Below, piece by piece: positions 12,214 to 15,457 of a stretch of 19,938 nt of DNA; position 1 is the first letter of the stretch; each line of letters starts with the position of its first letter. Below the pieces are notes generated by a model. The model ran no database searches, had not been told where the DNA came from, and was given only the letters and a program-made list of their open reading frames with translations. The translations under genes were made by a program, and so were the position numbers. This stretch comes from a virus (lineage: Duplodnaviria > Heunggongvirae > Uroviricota > Caudoviricetes). Where the stretch lies: IMG/VR virus record IMGVR_UViG_2737471861_000023, one strand, 5' to 3'.

Positions 12214-12639
12214 TCAATGTACTGCCACAGCATTTCCTGCCGGGCCACCACGGTTCATCTGATTGAAACCGGCGATTGCCACTGCGACAAAATCATCAGC
12301 GTCTCTCACCAATCGCTCCCGCGTCTCCACCAGCTCCCGAAAATAAGCTGAACTGTGGCTGCGCATTCTGGCCACCAGCAAAGGTGGCATTGCCTTTTCG
12401 ATCGCTGGTAACAACGCCTGAATTTTTTCAACTGCATCAGGGGTGTCTTTCTCTACCCAGCGGAAAATTTTCTGTGTATTGCGAGCCAGGGCTTCCGGAT
12501 GGCTGTCGTCATACAGTTCAGGAAACGTCATACCCAACTCAAAATAAGCCTGGGTTATTCCAGCTGCTGGAACTTTTTCGCCATCAGGACGCGCCCAGGC
12601 ATTCATCGCCATGCGGATGTGTTCATGCTTGATTTTCAT
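12214..12639 (-). CDS. ydaT: YdaT-like protein (CII-like fold; Rac-prophage toxic protein family), 141 aa
   Basis: Translation MKIKHEHIRMAMNAWARPDGEKVPAAGITQAYFELG... matches Rac YdaT as recalled; ATGA overlap with the ydaS stop. Confidence 0.85.
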   Translation of the reverse strand: MKIKHEHIRMAMNAWARPDGEKVPAAGITQAYFELGMTFPELYDDSHPEALARNTQKIFRWVEKDTPDAVEKIQALLPAIEKAMPPLLVARMRSHSSAYFRELVETRERLVRDADDFVAVAIAGFNQMNRGGPAGNAVAVH

Positions 12640-12866
12640 GAATCCCCCCCTTGGTTAGAAGGCGGATTATGATCAGAACCGGGAATGACAACCGTCGGTA
12701 TGTGTAACTCATATTTGAGCGCCCCGGCAGTGACTGCCTGAATTAGCAACGCCCATTTCCACGGAACCTCTTCCCCCCACATGCTGACTGTGGTTTTTGA
12801 CGTTCCTAGAGCTGCGGCTGTTTTAACAACTCCGCCAAAATAGCCTAATACTTCTGATTTTTTCAT
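12636..12866 (-). CDS. ydaS: YdaS-like Cro-type HTH protein, 76 aa
   Basis: Start at MKKSEVLGYFGGVVKTAAALGTSKTTVSMW (HTH) with GGAG SD; divergent from the CI-like repressor. Confidence 0.8.
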   Translation of the reverse strand: MKKSEVLGYFGGVVKTAAALGTSKTTVSMWGEEVPWKWALLIQAVTAGALKYELHIPTVVIPGSDHNPPSNQGGDS

Positions 12867-12940
12867 GAGTCGCTCCATAAAACTGAACGCCAAAAGTTTA
12901 ATAATCAAAACCAAAGAAAGTCAAGAAACAAAACCATCTG

Positions 12941-12958
12941 TGTTTTAAAATCAAAACA
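12941..12958. promoter_or_regulatory. Operator-like palindrome TGTTTT-aaaatc-AAAACA overlapping the repressor start codon
   Basis: Inverted repeat read from sequence; same architecture repeated at 13663..13680; ATCAAAAC also at 12904..12911. Confidence 0.4.
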
Positions 12959-13596
12959 TGAGCAAGCAAACAATATCTGAACGCATAACCCAACGTATGC
13001 ATGCGCTAAACCTGAAAGGCAAAGACCTTGTCAATGCCACTGGCGCATCAAAAGGCTCCGTAAGTCAATGGATGAACGGTGGAGGAGCGCCGTCCTCGCG
13101 TTACATAAGTTCACTGGCAAAGATATTGAAAGTAAACGAAAATTGGCTTCTTAATGGAGGAGAGTTAAATACAGGTGATTCGCTTGATCTATCTTTACCG
13201 CCGATAAAAACGGTTCCGCTACTATCACTTCAGCAGGCAGCAAGCTGGAGTGATTATATGAAAAATTCCTCAATAACCTCTTGTGTGCAGCTTGTCGGAG
13301 AAATCCCGGCCAATACCTTTGCAGTTGTTCTAGAGAGTGACAGTATGTCAACATCTGGTGGGGGAGTTTCCATCCCAAATGGTTCAACAGTTTTTGTTGA
13401 TCCCGATCGAACCGTACAACCAGGAAATATTGTCCTTGCCTTACCCAAAGGGACCACAACACCTGTCATTCGTAAACTGGAGATAGAAGGGCCGGATATT
13501 CTTTTAGTCCCCACGAATCCTCGCTACCCTTCAATTATGCTGGATGATCTATCTTGCATATTGGGCGTATGCTTTAAAATTCAACAAGATATTTAA
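12958..13596 (+). CDS. CI-like prophage repressor: N-terminal XRE-type HTH plus C-terminal S24 (LexA-like) peptidase domain, 212 aa
   Basis: HTH segment (LVNATGASKGSVSQWMNGG) and S24-like C-terminus with Ser (VLESDSM) and Lys (VIRKL); divergent arrangement with the Cro-like gene. Confidence 0.85.
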   Translation: MSKQTISERITQRMHALNLKGKDLVNATGASKGSVSQWMNGGGAPSSRYISSLAKILKVNENWLLNGGELNTGDSLDLSLPPIKTVPLLSLQQAASWSDYMKNSSITSCVQLVGEIPANTFAVVLESDSMSTSGGGVSIPNGSTVFVDPDRTVQPGNIVLALPKGTTTPVIRKLEIEGPDILLVPTNPRYPSIMLDDLSCILGVCFKIQQDI

Positions 13597-13662
13597 CCAA
13601 CCTCATCTATTTGATTAACTGTATGCCATCGTGGTGATGGCTTAACAGCTGCCTGCTTAAAA

Positions 13663-13680
13663 TGTTTTGATAAAAAAACA
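13663..13680. promoter_or_regulatory. Operator-like palindrome TGTTTT-gataaa-AAAACA abutting the -35 of the early-left promoter
   Basis: Inverted repeat read from sequence; identical half-sites to 12941..12958. Confidence 0.4.
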
Positions 13681-13709
13681 TTGACCTGAAAAGTTCATTT
13701 TTCTAAACT
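13681..13709 (+). promoter_or_regulatory. Candidate sigma-70 promoter for the ydfA-dicF-dicB operon (pL-like): -35 TTGACC, 17-nt spacer, -10 TAAACT
   Basis: Hexamers read from sequence at 13681..13686 and 13704..13709. Confidence 0.4.
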
Positions 13710-13888
13710 TCATTCATTCCCTCACCCCACCCCACAGAATGCAGGGCAATACTTCGAGTTACCAGGCAGTGGTCAGGGGTTAAGTAGCCAGCCCGAGGCG
13801 TAAGAACATGACGGCAGGGTTCAACTTTAATAACTATGCAGCAGGTTTTTGTTCCGCTACCCCGGCGTTAAGGGGAAATGAGGTCAAC

Positions 13889-14044
13889 ATGGATACTATC
13901 GATCTTGGCAACAACGAATCTCTGGTGTACGGAGTGTTTCCCAACCAGGACGGCACATTCACCGCGATGACGTATACCAAAAGCAAAACGTTTAAAACCG
14001 AAAATGGTGCCCGTCGCTGGCTGGAAAGAAACTCAGGTGAGTGA
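13889..14044 (+). CDS. ydfA: YdfA/YdaF-like small protein, 51 aa
   Basis: Internal ATG with GAGG SD; MDTIDLGNNESLVYGVFPNQDGTFTAMTYTK... recalled as Qin YdfA-like; the 78-aa track ORF start is rejected. Confidence 0.65.
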   Translation: MDTIDLGNNESLVYGVFPNQDGTFTAMTYTKSKTFKTENGARRWLERNSGE

Positions 14045-14045
14045 T

Positions 14046-14174
14046 ATGGATTTCGACACAATCATGAAAAAGGCTTACGAAGAGTACTTCGAAGGCCTTG
14101 CCGAAGGCGAAGAGGCTCTCAGCTTCAGTGAGTTTAAACAGGCGCTTTCCAGTTCGACAAAATCTATCGACTAA
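14046..14174 (+). CDS. ydfB: YdfB/YdaG-like small protein, 42 aa (MDFDTIMKKAYEEYFEGLAEGEEALSFSEFKQALSSSTKSID)
   Basis: ATG 1 nt after the ydfA stop with AGGTGAG SD; hand-translated; below the ORF-track size cutoff. Confidence 0.6.
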   Translation: MDFDTIMKKAYEEYFEGLAEGEEALSFSEFKQALSSSTKSID

Positions 14175-14185
14175 CGGGGTTAAAG

Positions 14186-14344
14186 ATGGAATTTAAAGAT
14201 TTACCTCCAGACACTCAGAAAATCGCCGCAGAAACACTGAAATCTCTCATTTTGAACGGGGAGACAGAAAAGGTAGATCCAGCTAAAAAACTGGCTCAAG
14301 AAATCAGAGAAGCCTTTATTGCTCTTTATCAGTCTTCTCCATAG
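14186..14344 (+). CDS. Hypothetical small protein, 52 aa (MEFKDLPPDTQKIAAETLKSLILNGETEKVDPAKKLAQEIREAFIALYQSSP)
   Basis: Hand-translated ORF 11 nt after ydfB; weak SD; overlaps a convergent minus-strand ORF by 29 nt. Confidence 0.4.
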   Translation: MEFKDLPPDTQKIAAETLKSLILNGETEKVDPAKKLAQEIREAFIALYQSSP

Positions 14345-14501
14345 CGGCTTGTTTTTCTTCTTTTAATATATTGCGGATTGTAATAACTGAATTAGCCGCC
14401 TCTGAAGGGGATGACATTTTGCCAGCCCGAATTAACTCAACTGTTAAGTTCAAAGCTGCAACAGATGGATAGGTAAATGGGTTAATTAACTTGTCTGACA
14501 T
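14316..14501 (-). CDS. Hypothetical small protein, 61 aa (MSDKLINPFTYPSVAALNLTVELIRAGKMSSPSEAANSVITIRNILKEEKQAAMEKTDKEQ), convergent and antisense within the dic operon
   Basis: ATG at 14501 preceded by GGAGG with 5-nt spacer; no family recognised. Confidence 0.4.
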   Translation of the reverse strand: MSDKLINPFTYPSVAALNLTVELIRAGKMSSPSEAANSVITIRNILKEEKQAAMEKTDKEQ

Positions 14502-14832
14502 TTTATCCTCCATTGAGGTTCTGGGTTAAAAATGGAGACCAACATGCTGCCACATGTGGTCGTGCGCCGGACACGGATAAGAATCCGGCACTGACAGTTT
14601 ACTGAAAGGATATATCCCTGAAAAGTCAGGGCATAACGCGAAAGCGCACGGCGAAGTTCGTCTCACTGTACGGTGTCGTTAAATTTAATTCGACCGTGCG
14701 CTTCCGGTTGTGGCACTCCGCGAAATGGCGCGGCGGTACGTATGGCGGGGTTATTCCTTCCCCCTGTTGAGGACACCGGGTTGTCAGGTTGACCATACGC
14801 CTGAGTGACAACCCCGCTGCAACAACCCATGT

Positions 14833-14885
14833 TGATTACCTTTTGGCGGCATCAGTTTCATTGCTGGCTGATGTCCGTCCTTTTT
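14833..14885 (+). ncRNA. dicF: DicF-like antisense sRNA (ftsZ-targeting family) ending in an intrinsic terminator
   Basis: TTTGGCGGCATCAGTTT... and the downstream CTTTTTAAAGTGAATTTTGTGATG.GGTGAATGCGGCT.AGCGCACGCGGAACAG block resemble K-12 DicF and its 3' flank as recalled; stem GGCGGCATCAG/CTGATG(t)CCGTCC followed by T5; exact 5' end uncertain. Confidence 0.55.
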
Positions 14886-15068
14886 AAAGTGAATTTTGTG
14901 ATGCGGTGAATGCGGCTCAGCGCACGCGGAACAGTTAAAAAGGCCAGTTGACTTCCGTATTGGTTCTTATGGGTGGGTTCTCTGTATCCGGCGTTAATTG
15001 TTAACTAGTTAACGTCACCTGGAGGCACCAGGCACCGCATCACAAAATTCATTGTTGAGGACGCGATA

Positions 15069-15251
15069 ATGGAAACGTTATTACCAAACGTCAATACGTC
15101 TGAAGGTTGTTTTGAAATTGGTGTCAGAATCAGTAACCCTGTATTTACTGAAGATGCCATTAATAAGAGAAAACACGAACGGGAGCTATTAAATCAAATA
15201 TGCATTGTTTCAATGCTGGCCCGTTTACGCCTGATGCAAAAAGGACGCTGA
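15069..15251 (+). CDS. dicB: Cell-division inhibitor DicB, 60 aa
   Basis: Translation METLLPNVNTSEGCFEIGVRISNPVFTEDAINKRKHERELLNQICIVSMLARLRLMQKGR closely matches DicB as recalled. Confidence 0.9.
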   Translation: METLLPNVNTSEGCFEIGVRISNPVFTEDAINKRKHERELLNQICIVSMLARLRLMQKGR

Positions 15252-15253
15252 CA

Positions 15254-15457
15254 ATGAATACAGCATTTGCACTCGTTCTGACAGTTTTTCTTAATACAGG
15301 CGAACCAGTCGATCTTGTTATTGGTATACATGACTCAATGAAAGAATGCATGGCTGCCGCAGCGGAACAGAAAATTCCCGGCAACTGTTATCCGGTTGAT
15401 AAAGTTATTCGCATGGACAATAACGAAATCCCGGCAGGACTTAAAACAGCACCGTAA
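15254..15457 (+). CDS. ydfD: YdfD-like small membrane/lysis protein, 67 aa
   Basis: Internal start MNTAFALVLTVFLNTGEPVD... matches Qin YdfD as recalled; AAGGA SD; the track N-terminal extension overlaps dicB and is rejected. Confidence 0.75.
   Translation: MNTAFALVLTVFLNTGEPVDLVIGIHDSMKECMAAAAEQKIPGNCYPVDKVIRMDNNEIPAGLKTAP

Follow-up and report, generated by a model that had tools for sequence, protein, structure and literature searches.

Two perfect copies of an 18-bp inverted repeat, TGTTTT-N6-AAAACA, in a 19,938-bp stretch of phage DNA (IMG/VR virus record IMGVR_UViG_2737471861_000023; the whole stretch is called the window below) are very probably operators of the immunity switch of a lambdoid E. 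coli prophage, with the CI-like repressor and the Cro-like protein encoded beside them as the likely ligands. The first copy, site A (TGTTTTAAAATCAAAACA, 12941-12958), lies in the 91-bp control region that separates the divergent cI- and cro-like open reading frames (ORFs), and its final A is the A of the cI-like ATG (12958). The second, site B (TGTTTTGATAAAAAAACA, 13663-13680), is followed immediately by TTGACC (13681-13686), a 17-nt spacer and TAAACT (13704-13709). The minus-strand direction of the window corresponds to the lambda rightward operon, and this promoter corresponds to the leftward promoter, PL (dicBp in the Qin prophage). The rightward promoter (PR), the repressor maintenance promoter (PRM) and the right and left operators (OR and OL) are named on the same scheme. 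The sites are real and non-random; they sit on promoter elements, are conserved amid variable flanks and are specific to one immunity cassette. Four kinds of evidence support their reading as operators: placement on the promoters, sequence conservation, restriction to one cassette and recurrence of the core beside a distantly related repressor.

Palindromes of the two control regions

The initial annotation had placed the repeat over the repressor ATG and again next to a well-formed promoter. Both copies were read directly at these places, and the promoter scan agreed on the hexamers and the spacer that follow the second. The recurrence of the half-site ATCAAAAC at 12904-12911, also noted there, was found again. 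A motif scan for further copies showed that the window has exactly two matches to TGTTTT-N6-AAAACA, where 0 are expected, and the looser core GTTT-N8-AAAC added a third site, C (Table 1).

No match to TGTTTT-N6-AAAACA arose in 200 dinucleotide-preserving shuffles of the window. Because both control regions are rich in A/T (68% A+T in the first, 65% in the second), each was also simulated with its own composition, using a first-order Markov model per region and 200,000 trials. A perfect 6-N6-6 inverted repeat of any sequence appeared in 2.2% of the simulations of the first region and 5.4% of those of the second, and identical palindrome arms in both regions in 0 of the 200,000. The pair is not explained by chance. 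For the core GTTT-N8-AAAC the window has five exact matches where 0.7 would be expected. Sites A, B and C in the two control regions account for three, and the other two are outside these regions, at 698 and 15715.

Read from the outer end to the center, the half-sites are TGTTTTAAA and TGTTTTGAT in site A, TGTTTTGAT and TGTTTTTTT in site B, and AGTTTAATA and GGTTTTGAT in site C. On these sequences the operator is better defined as an 18-bp two-fold symmetric site with the half-site nGTTTTGAT and the core GTTT-N8-AAAC. A middle position, M, has its center 23 bp from the centers of both A and C. The same layout was picked up, unprompted, by a repeat finder, which aligned 12896-12927 with 12942-12973 (spacing 46, C to A), 12900-12913 with 12923-12936 (spacing 23), and 12892-12911 with 13689-13708. 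The last alignment pairs C with a candidate site, D, within PL. A position weight matrix built from sites A, B and C only ranked D 6th of the 19,921 positions in the window. The left half of site C is the PR -10 hexamer on the opposite strand. PR and PL have the -10 hexamer TAAACT in common, and it forms the outer half of both C and D; since both promoters use it, D lies on PL at the same -24 to -7 position as C on PR. One-mismatch matches to the core were not enriched across the window (20 versus 14 expected), so the case for D is one of position and of variants in related loci, not of counts, and D is the weakest of the proposed sites.

Conservation was followed in 88 loci carrying this repressor: 80 from IMG/VR, six assembly contigs and two annotated records. 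The six contigs encode more divergent repressors, with 84-85% identity in four of them and 73% in the other two, whose repressor is a shortened form of 178 aa. One scan of genome contigs with the CI protein confirmed no relatives. Variable positions were counted over the 61 unique sequences of the 88 loci, with a close set of 56 unique sequences that are otherwise at least 98% identical. The A/B pair is in the same position relative to cI in nearly all 88 loci. Site A is invariant in the 56 close relatives and varies at 1 of its 18 positions when the cassettes diverged by about 16% are added. Site B has one variable column in the close relatives and 3 of 18 over all relatives, versus 41-77% in its flanks. 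Site C varies at 2 of 18 positions and position M is invariant in all relatives. Over 12895-12935 as a whole only 2 of 41 positions are variable, and in the gap 12936-12940 that follows, 4 of 5. Elsewhere the variable fraction is 36% in the cro leader, 26% in the cI coding sequence, 41% in 13597-13662 and 77% in 13710-13722.

In the cassettes whose CI is 84-85% identical, the changes sit in the gaps or bring the sites nearer to the consensus. One of them (L009) has C12912A in site C, nearer to the consensus, and ATCAAAACC changed to ATCAAAACA; in another (L010) site D is TGTTTGTTTTTCTAAACT, with the exact core. In both, the PL -35 hexamer is TTGACT, identical to that of PR. About 20 close-relative loci carry A13692T in D, which gives TGTTC and is also nearer to the consensus.

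Two further observations concern the OL side of these loci. No other 12 bp of the cassette have as many haplotypes as the PL spacer (13687-13698), which has 13 against a median of 2 in the 56 sequences, and its per-base diversity is about five times the average; A and C are invariant in the same 56 and B has its one variable column. This diversity may reflect selection on the leakiness of the dicB operon or simply no constraint. Five related loci (including L007, L008, L031 and L072) have a 1-bp deletion in the A8 run of site B (13672-13679), which alters the half-site spacing, and two of the five encode a repressor shortened to 178 aa. Either decay of the operator in cryptic copies or a sequencing error in the homopolymer could account for the deletion.

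The sites belong to one exchangeable module. When a 1.5-kb query (12600-14100) was compared with other genomes, many matched it only at query positions 1-45 and from about 1120-1124 onward, which delimits an exchangeable module ending a few bases past the PL -10 hexamer. It is bordered by ydaT and by the ydfA leader, and cassettes of other specificity have these same borders. Three other cassettes in the same slot each have their own, different palindrome at both OR and OL: GGTAAC-N4-GTTACC in L003, a TACCCATGGGTA-type sequence in L004 and a GTACT-N4-AGTAC-type sequence in phage Tritos (L005). The PL promoters of the other cassettes are in the same register to the shared leader (CCCACCCC.CCCCACAGAA...). 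None of these three loci contains TGTTTT-N6-AAAACA. The palindromes are thus cassette-specific, and the sites belong with the proteins that the module encodes, CI and Cro. The cassette is widespread: 1,039 of 5,426 complete E. coli genomes, along with three induced-prophage records, contain at least 80% of the 1.5-kb query.

The same core is found with a distant repressor. A tblastn search with the CI DNA-binding domain against 50,697 phage records gave, at 60% identity or above, only three E. coli prophage-derived records, so no operator could be transferred from a characterized relative. The best phage matches apart from these were Acinetobacter phages, at 46-49% identity. Phage BUCTT20 (L093), whose CI DNA-binding domain is 45-49% identical, has four exact GTTT-N8-AAAC sites where 0.1 are expected, two in the cro-cI control region (1390-1426) and two after cI (2316-2365), one site lying between TTGACA and TAAACT. 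Phage Abau_Attikon1 has TGTTCATAATTTTGAACA ahead of its repressor gene. The Acinetobacter sites support the core motif, and with it a design in which the -10 hexamer would double as an operator half-site.

Proposed action of the sites and the alternatives

From this arrangement we infer CI and Cro as the binders, the order in which the sites fill, the transcription starts, and any cooperativity or looping. The CI-type repressor and the P22-Cro-type protein would recognize 18-bp sites with the half-site nGTTTTGAT. At OR there would be three positions 23 bp apart, with C on the PR -10 hexamer, the half-site of M by the PR -35 hexamer, and A on the cI start and its likely -10 hexamer. In a lysogen, repressor dimers on C, aided by the neighboring half-site, would block PR, and dimers on D and B, bracketing the PL -35 hexamer, would block PL. 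With PL off, the ydfABC-dicF-dicB-ydfD operon would be silent. Occupation of A by Cro or by excess CI would turn cI off. Site B may act through cooperativity with D, by blocking polymerase contacts upstream of the promoter, or in a loop with A. The cI ATG has no Shine-Dalgarno sequence before it and a TAAAAT ends 6 nt upstream; the cI transcript is thus probably leaderless, starting at the A of the ATG. With such a start, site A would span -17 to +1 of PRM and would switch PRM off. The proposal in the initial annotation that the two palindromes form the operator set was therefore upheld in kind, but the set is larger than the two perfect copies and would also include C, D and the half-site M.

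Several points weigh against the operator reading. Position M is a half-site only, and ranks 126th of 19,921 when scored as a full palindrome. The promoter scan did not call PRM; PRM and all transcription starts are predictions, the starts being placed at about 12888 on the minus strand for PR, at 12958 for PRM and at about 13716 for PL. Site D is weak, since half of its score is the -10 hexamer itself, and its left half is variable. At OL the strongest site, B, is placed ahead of the -35 hexamer and outside the core promoter, unlike the sites of the other three cassettes, and for a perfect palindrome this is on its own an odd place for simple occlusion. Sites A and B may be preferred by Cro and not by CI, since binding at A would turn cI off and B is outside the PL core. 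Finally, a BLASTP comparison of Cro with the CI N-terminal domain found no alignable similarity, and no common recognition helix is claimed. A by-eye resemblance in the same comparison, GASKGSVSQW versus GTSKTTVSMW, is a hint only.

The question of preference leads to the alternative that survives best, a possible though doubtful one: A and B would be mainly high-affinity Cro sites, and C and D the main points of action of the repressor. Cro would begin by turning off cI at A and would dampen PL via B, and in a lysogen CI would fill the sites in the promoter cores. Site A, over the cI start and its likely -10 hexamer, is in an OR3-like position, which is where lambda Cro binds first, and small symmetric Cro dimers favor perfect palindromes. 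A further point in favor is the identical placement of C and D on PR and PL. On the other hand, D is a weak match, and lambdoid CI and Cro use the same operators, so the difference would be one of preference and not of identity. The Cro equivalent of CP-933P occupies PRM when its concentration is low, and PR when it is higher (PMC8630535), which favors this alternative.

It is less likely that B, instead of repressing by occlusion, is a distal anchor, paired with A for an OR-OL repressor loop of about 720 bp, or a site that blocks contacts of the RNA polymerase alpha subunit C-terminal domain (alpha-CTD) with an UP element. B lies outside the core promoter in surroundings whose A/T-richness resembles that of an UP element; A and B, the sole perfect copies, stand at the OR3-like and OL3-like ends; and the C-terminal domain of this CI aligns with the lambda CI oligomerization domain. 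In lambda, the OR3 and OL3 positions cooperate through the loop. The argument is pure analogy, however; the other cassettes manage with operators in the core promoter, and the five loci with the 1-bp deletion suggest that B may be dispensable, at least in decaying prophages. In an extended form, which we also regard as improbable, A and B would not be redundant sites of repression but would form the ends of a very short loop of about 720 bp that couples leaderless cI autoregulation to dicBF silencing, and the hypervariable PL spacer beside invariant operators would record recurrent host selection tuning the leakiness of the toxic operon, the cassette being present in about one in five complete E. 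coli genomes.

Much less probable still is that the palindromes are binding sites of YdaT, the CII-equivalent tetramer encoded just downstream of cro. The YdaT of the window is nearly identical to 3c4r and close to CP-933P YdaT (8bt1), and the sites carry AATCAA or TTGAT substrings that recall TTGATT-N6-AATCAA, the site bound by CP-933P YdaT at the ydaS/ydaT junction (PMC9986795). The palindromes, however, are at least three mismatches from that motif. The best match in the window is TTGATTTTCATGAATCCC at 12629-12646, the cro/ydaT junction and so the experimentally reported location, with two mismatches on the cassette side, and L004-L006, which carry cassettes of other immunity, match the motif exactly at 330-347. 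Since ydaT is shared across immunities and TGTTTT-N6-AAAACA is confined to this cassette, YdaT was rejected as the ligand of the palindromes.

That the palindromes arose by chance in A/T-rich intergenic DNA, or reflect generic promoter architecture with no specific binder, is hardly credible: the base composition, the lack of enrichment of one-mismatch cores and the two exact cores at 698 and 15715 would allow it, but the composition-matched simulations, the near-invariance of the sites amid variable flanks, their cassette specificity and the same core in the control regions of a distant homologue all speak against it.

Features and genes of the cassette

Table 1. Positions in the window of the proposed operators, promoters and genes (a point in the strand column marks features given without a strand).
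Feature	Position	Strand	Description
Exchangeable immunity cassette (cro, OR, cI, OL/PL)	~12645..13722	.	match boundaries at query positions 45 and 1120-1124
Operator A (OR3-like)	12941..12958	.	perfect palindrome; overlaps cI ATG and possible PRM -10 TAAAAT (12946-12951)
Middle position M	12918..12935	.	right half only (AACAAAACC, 12927-12935; reverse complement GGTTTTGTT); left half holds PR -35 (AGTCAA)
Operator C (OR1-like)	12895..12912	.	AGTTTAATAATCAAAACC, exact GTTT-N8-AAAC core; covers PR -10
PR-like promoter (cro-ydaT-replication genes)	12895..12924	-	TTGACT (12924..12919), 18-nt spacer, TAAACT (12900..12895); promoter scan
Putative PRM	12946..12958	+	-10 TAAAAT (12946-12951), weak -35; predicted from sequence
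cro-like gene	12636..12866	-	76 aa; Pfam P22_Cro; PDB 1rzs (P22 Cro), E 2.3e-8
cI-like repressor gene	12958..13596	+	212 aa; Pfam HTH_3 and Peptidase_S24; 434/P22-C2-type helix-turn-helix
Operator B (OL, distal)	13663..13680	.	directly upstream of PL -35; about -53 to -36 if start near 13716
PL-like promoter (dicBp equivalent)	13681..13709	+	TTGACC, 17-nt spacer, TAAACT; promoter scan
Candidate operator D (OL, proximal)	13692..13709	.	AGTTCATTTTTCTAAACT; one core mismatch; -24 to -7; right half is the -10 hexamer
ydfA (DUF1391)	13886-14044	+	Pfam
ydfB	14046-14174	+	name from 99.8%-identical RefSeq record
ydfC-like	14186-14344	+	name from 99.8%-identical RefSeq record
DicF-like RNA, weak	14830-14880	+	Rfam, 28.6 bits versus gathering score 48
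dicB	15069-15251	+	identified downstream of PL
ydfD-like (DUF1482)	15254-15457	+	identified downstream of PL
ydaT	12214-12639	-	~96% identical to PDB 3c4r; E 4e-79 to CP-933P YdaT (8bt1)
358-aa ORF	beyond cro	-	related phage record annotates replication protein O at this position
DUF977 gene	beyond cro	-	

The initial annotation had called the repressor CI-like, and it is indeed a full-length protein of the lambda CI type with HTH_3 and Peptidase_S24 domains. Its alignment with lambda CI (3bdn, E 3.8e-10) runs over residues 13-204. The N-terminal domain aligns with 434 repressor from residue 6 and with P22 C2 from residue 1. Alignments with homologues, two Acinetobacter phage repressors among them, begin at the first residues (helix 1), so the cI start at 12958 is right and the internal ATG at 12997 is wrong. 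Public annotations (ON470612.1, NZ_CP007592.1) start cI at the internal ATG or give a fragment only; DNA-binding helix 1 is then lost and the overlap of operator and start codon is hidden. The public annotation of the BUCTT20 repressor likewise starts too far downstream, at 1555 instead of 1492. Ala94-Ala95 (13237-13242) is aligned to the lambda Ala111-Gly112 self-cleavage bond and is the same in relatives that are 84-90% identical. The catalytic serine (DSMS, 128-131) and lysine (IRKL, 171-174) motifs are seen. Whether a repressor with Ala94-Ala95 would be SOS-inducible is uncertain.

The Cro-like protein had been taken for YdaS; it falls instead into the P22_Cro family, by Pfam and by its match to PDB 1rzs. 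A GGAG Shine-Dalgarno sequence lies 6 nt ahead of the cro ATG (12866). The 3' end of cro contains a C7 run (12644-12650) whose length differs among relatives, and in the 99.8%-identical record NZ_CP007592 cro is annotated as frameshifted. A fourth OR position at 12872-12889, considered by analogy with the four repeats of CP-933P, has only a GTTCA-type half and was set aside as speculation. The junction palindrome at 12629-12646 covers the cro stop and the ydaT start, and the mosaic junction of the cassette is inside it, just after GAATC.

There are no ORFs between the repressor gene and PL. A hairpin, GCCATC-GTGGT-GATGGC (13626-13642), stands 30 nt past the cI stop with no T-run after it, so read-through from cI into the PL operon is possible. 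The cassettes diverged by about 16% keep the stem with an altered loop, and cassettes L003 and L093 have clean intrinsic terminators at the equivalent place. The conserved ydfA leader (13716-13890) folds no better than its shuffles (z = 0.33) and matches no Rfam family.

The operon downstream of PL spans 13886..15457 on the plus strand. The initial annotation held that this promoter would drive ydfA-dicF-dicB. The gene order supports that much; the control by the repressor is predicted, and DicF is only a weak match. An STnc100-like RNA match at 14892-15046 (33 bits versus a gathering score of 47) was also found. The DicF-like and STnc100-like matches, both ahead of dicB, are divergent forms of small RNAs known from prophages.

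Comparison with known systems

The cassette is common and stands directly upstream of dicB, a DicF-like RNA and a ydfD-like gene. The products of dicB, DicF and ydfD act by inhibiting cell division, by changing phage receptors or by lysing the cell (PMC10448788). The operator sequence gives a handle on the timing of dicB-operon gene expression, on which prophages are homoimmune, and on the design of reporter and operator-mutant constructs, and the analysis corrects public annotations that place the cI start at the internal ATG. A search for the exact operator strings, within the literature open to searching, found no paper that prints these sequences or deals with this cassette.

The likeness to lambda, and also to P22 and 434, is in the divergent cI and cro genes, the short control region with 17-18-bp symmetric operators about 23 bp apart over PR and PRM, the second operator set at PL downstream of cI, the repressor with helix-turn-helix and S24 domains, and a cI that is probably leaderless. 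The Cro is of the P22 type. The half-site nGTTTTGAT presumably differs from the consensus operators of lambda, 434 and P22. In contrast to lambda, only cI lies between OR and OL, and the distance from A to B is 722 bp versus about 2.3 kb; the best OL site is upstream of the -35 hexamer; and the middle OR position is a half-site only. CII is replaced by YdaT, PL drives ydfABC-dicF-dicB and not N, and Ala-Ala stands where lambda has its Ala-Gly cleavage site.

CP-933P of E. coli O157:H7, with PaaR2, YdaS and YdaT (Jurenas et al. 2021, PMC8630535; Prolic-Kalinsek et al. 2023, PMC9986795), has a near-identical YdaT downstream of cro and the TTGATT-N6-AATC.. junction site. Its control region has equally spaced 18-bp palindromes with the half-site GTTTAGTAA, its PL hexamers are those of PR, and both proteins repress PL (PMC8630535). 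The likeness extends to a control region of about 90-97 bp, to equally spaced 18-bp palindromes that begin with GTTT, some of them conserved in one half only, to well-conserved palindromes on PRM and PR, and to PL hexamers that match those of PR. Leaderless mRNA was shown for lambda cI and for CP-933P paaR2 (PMC8630535); for the present cI it is predicted. The systems differ in that this cassette encodes, in place of PaaR2, a CI of 212 aa that has an S24 peptidase domain, and has no paaA2-parE2 toxin-antitoxin pair; Cro is of the P22_Cro family and not YdaS; the half-site is GTTTTGAT and not GTTTAGTAA; and PL leads into the dicB operon, which CP-933P is without.

The Qin prophage of E. coli K-12 has the same cargo, ydfA, ydfB, ydfC, dicF, dicB and ydfD, under a PL-equivalent promoter just past the repressor gene (PMC10448788). 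By the account given in that paper, which cites Bejar et al. 1988, the DicA/DicC operators are at dicCp and dicBp, and DicA represses dicBp 22-fold. DicA, however, is short (135 aa), lacks a cleavage domain and is regulated by the antirepressor Rem, whereas the repressor here has 212 aa and an S24 domain. In a K-12-derived laboratory strain (T7Express, H23) and many other genomes, near-identity to the window sets in only at 13851, within the ydfA leader; the promoter and operators are thus unrelated in sequence to those of Qin. Lambda OR/OL, Qin DicA/DicC-dicBp and CP-933P are the closest known systems and the design is an ordinary lambda-type one: the operator sequence is apparently new, but the concept adds nothing beyond the lambda paradigm.

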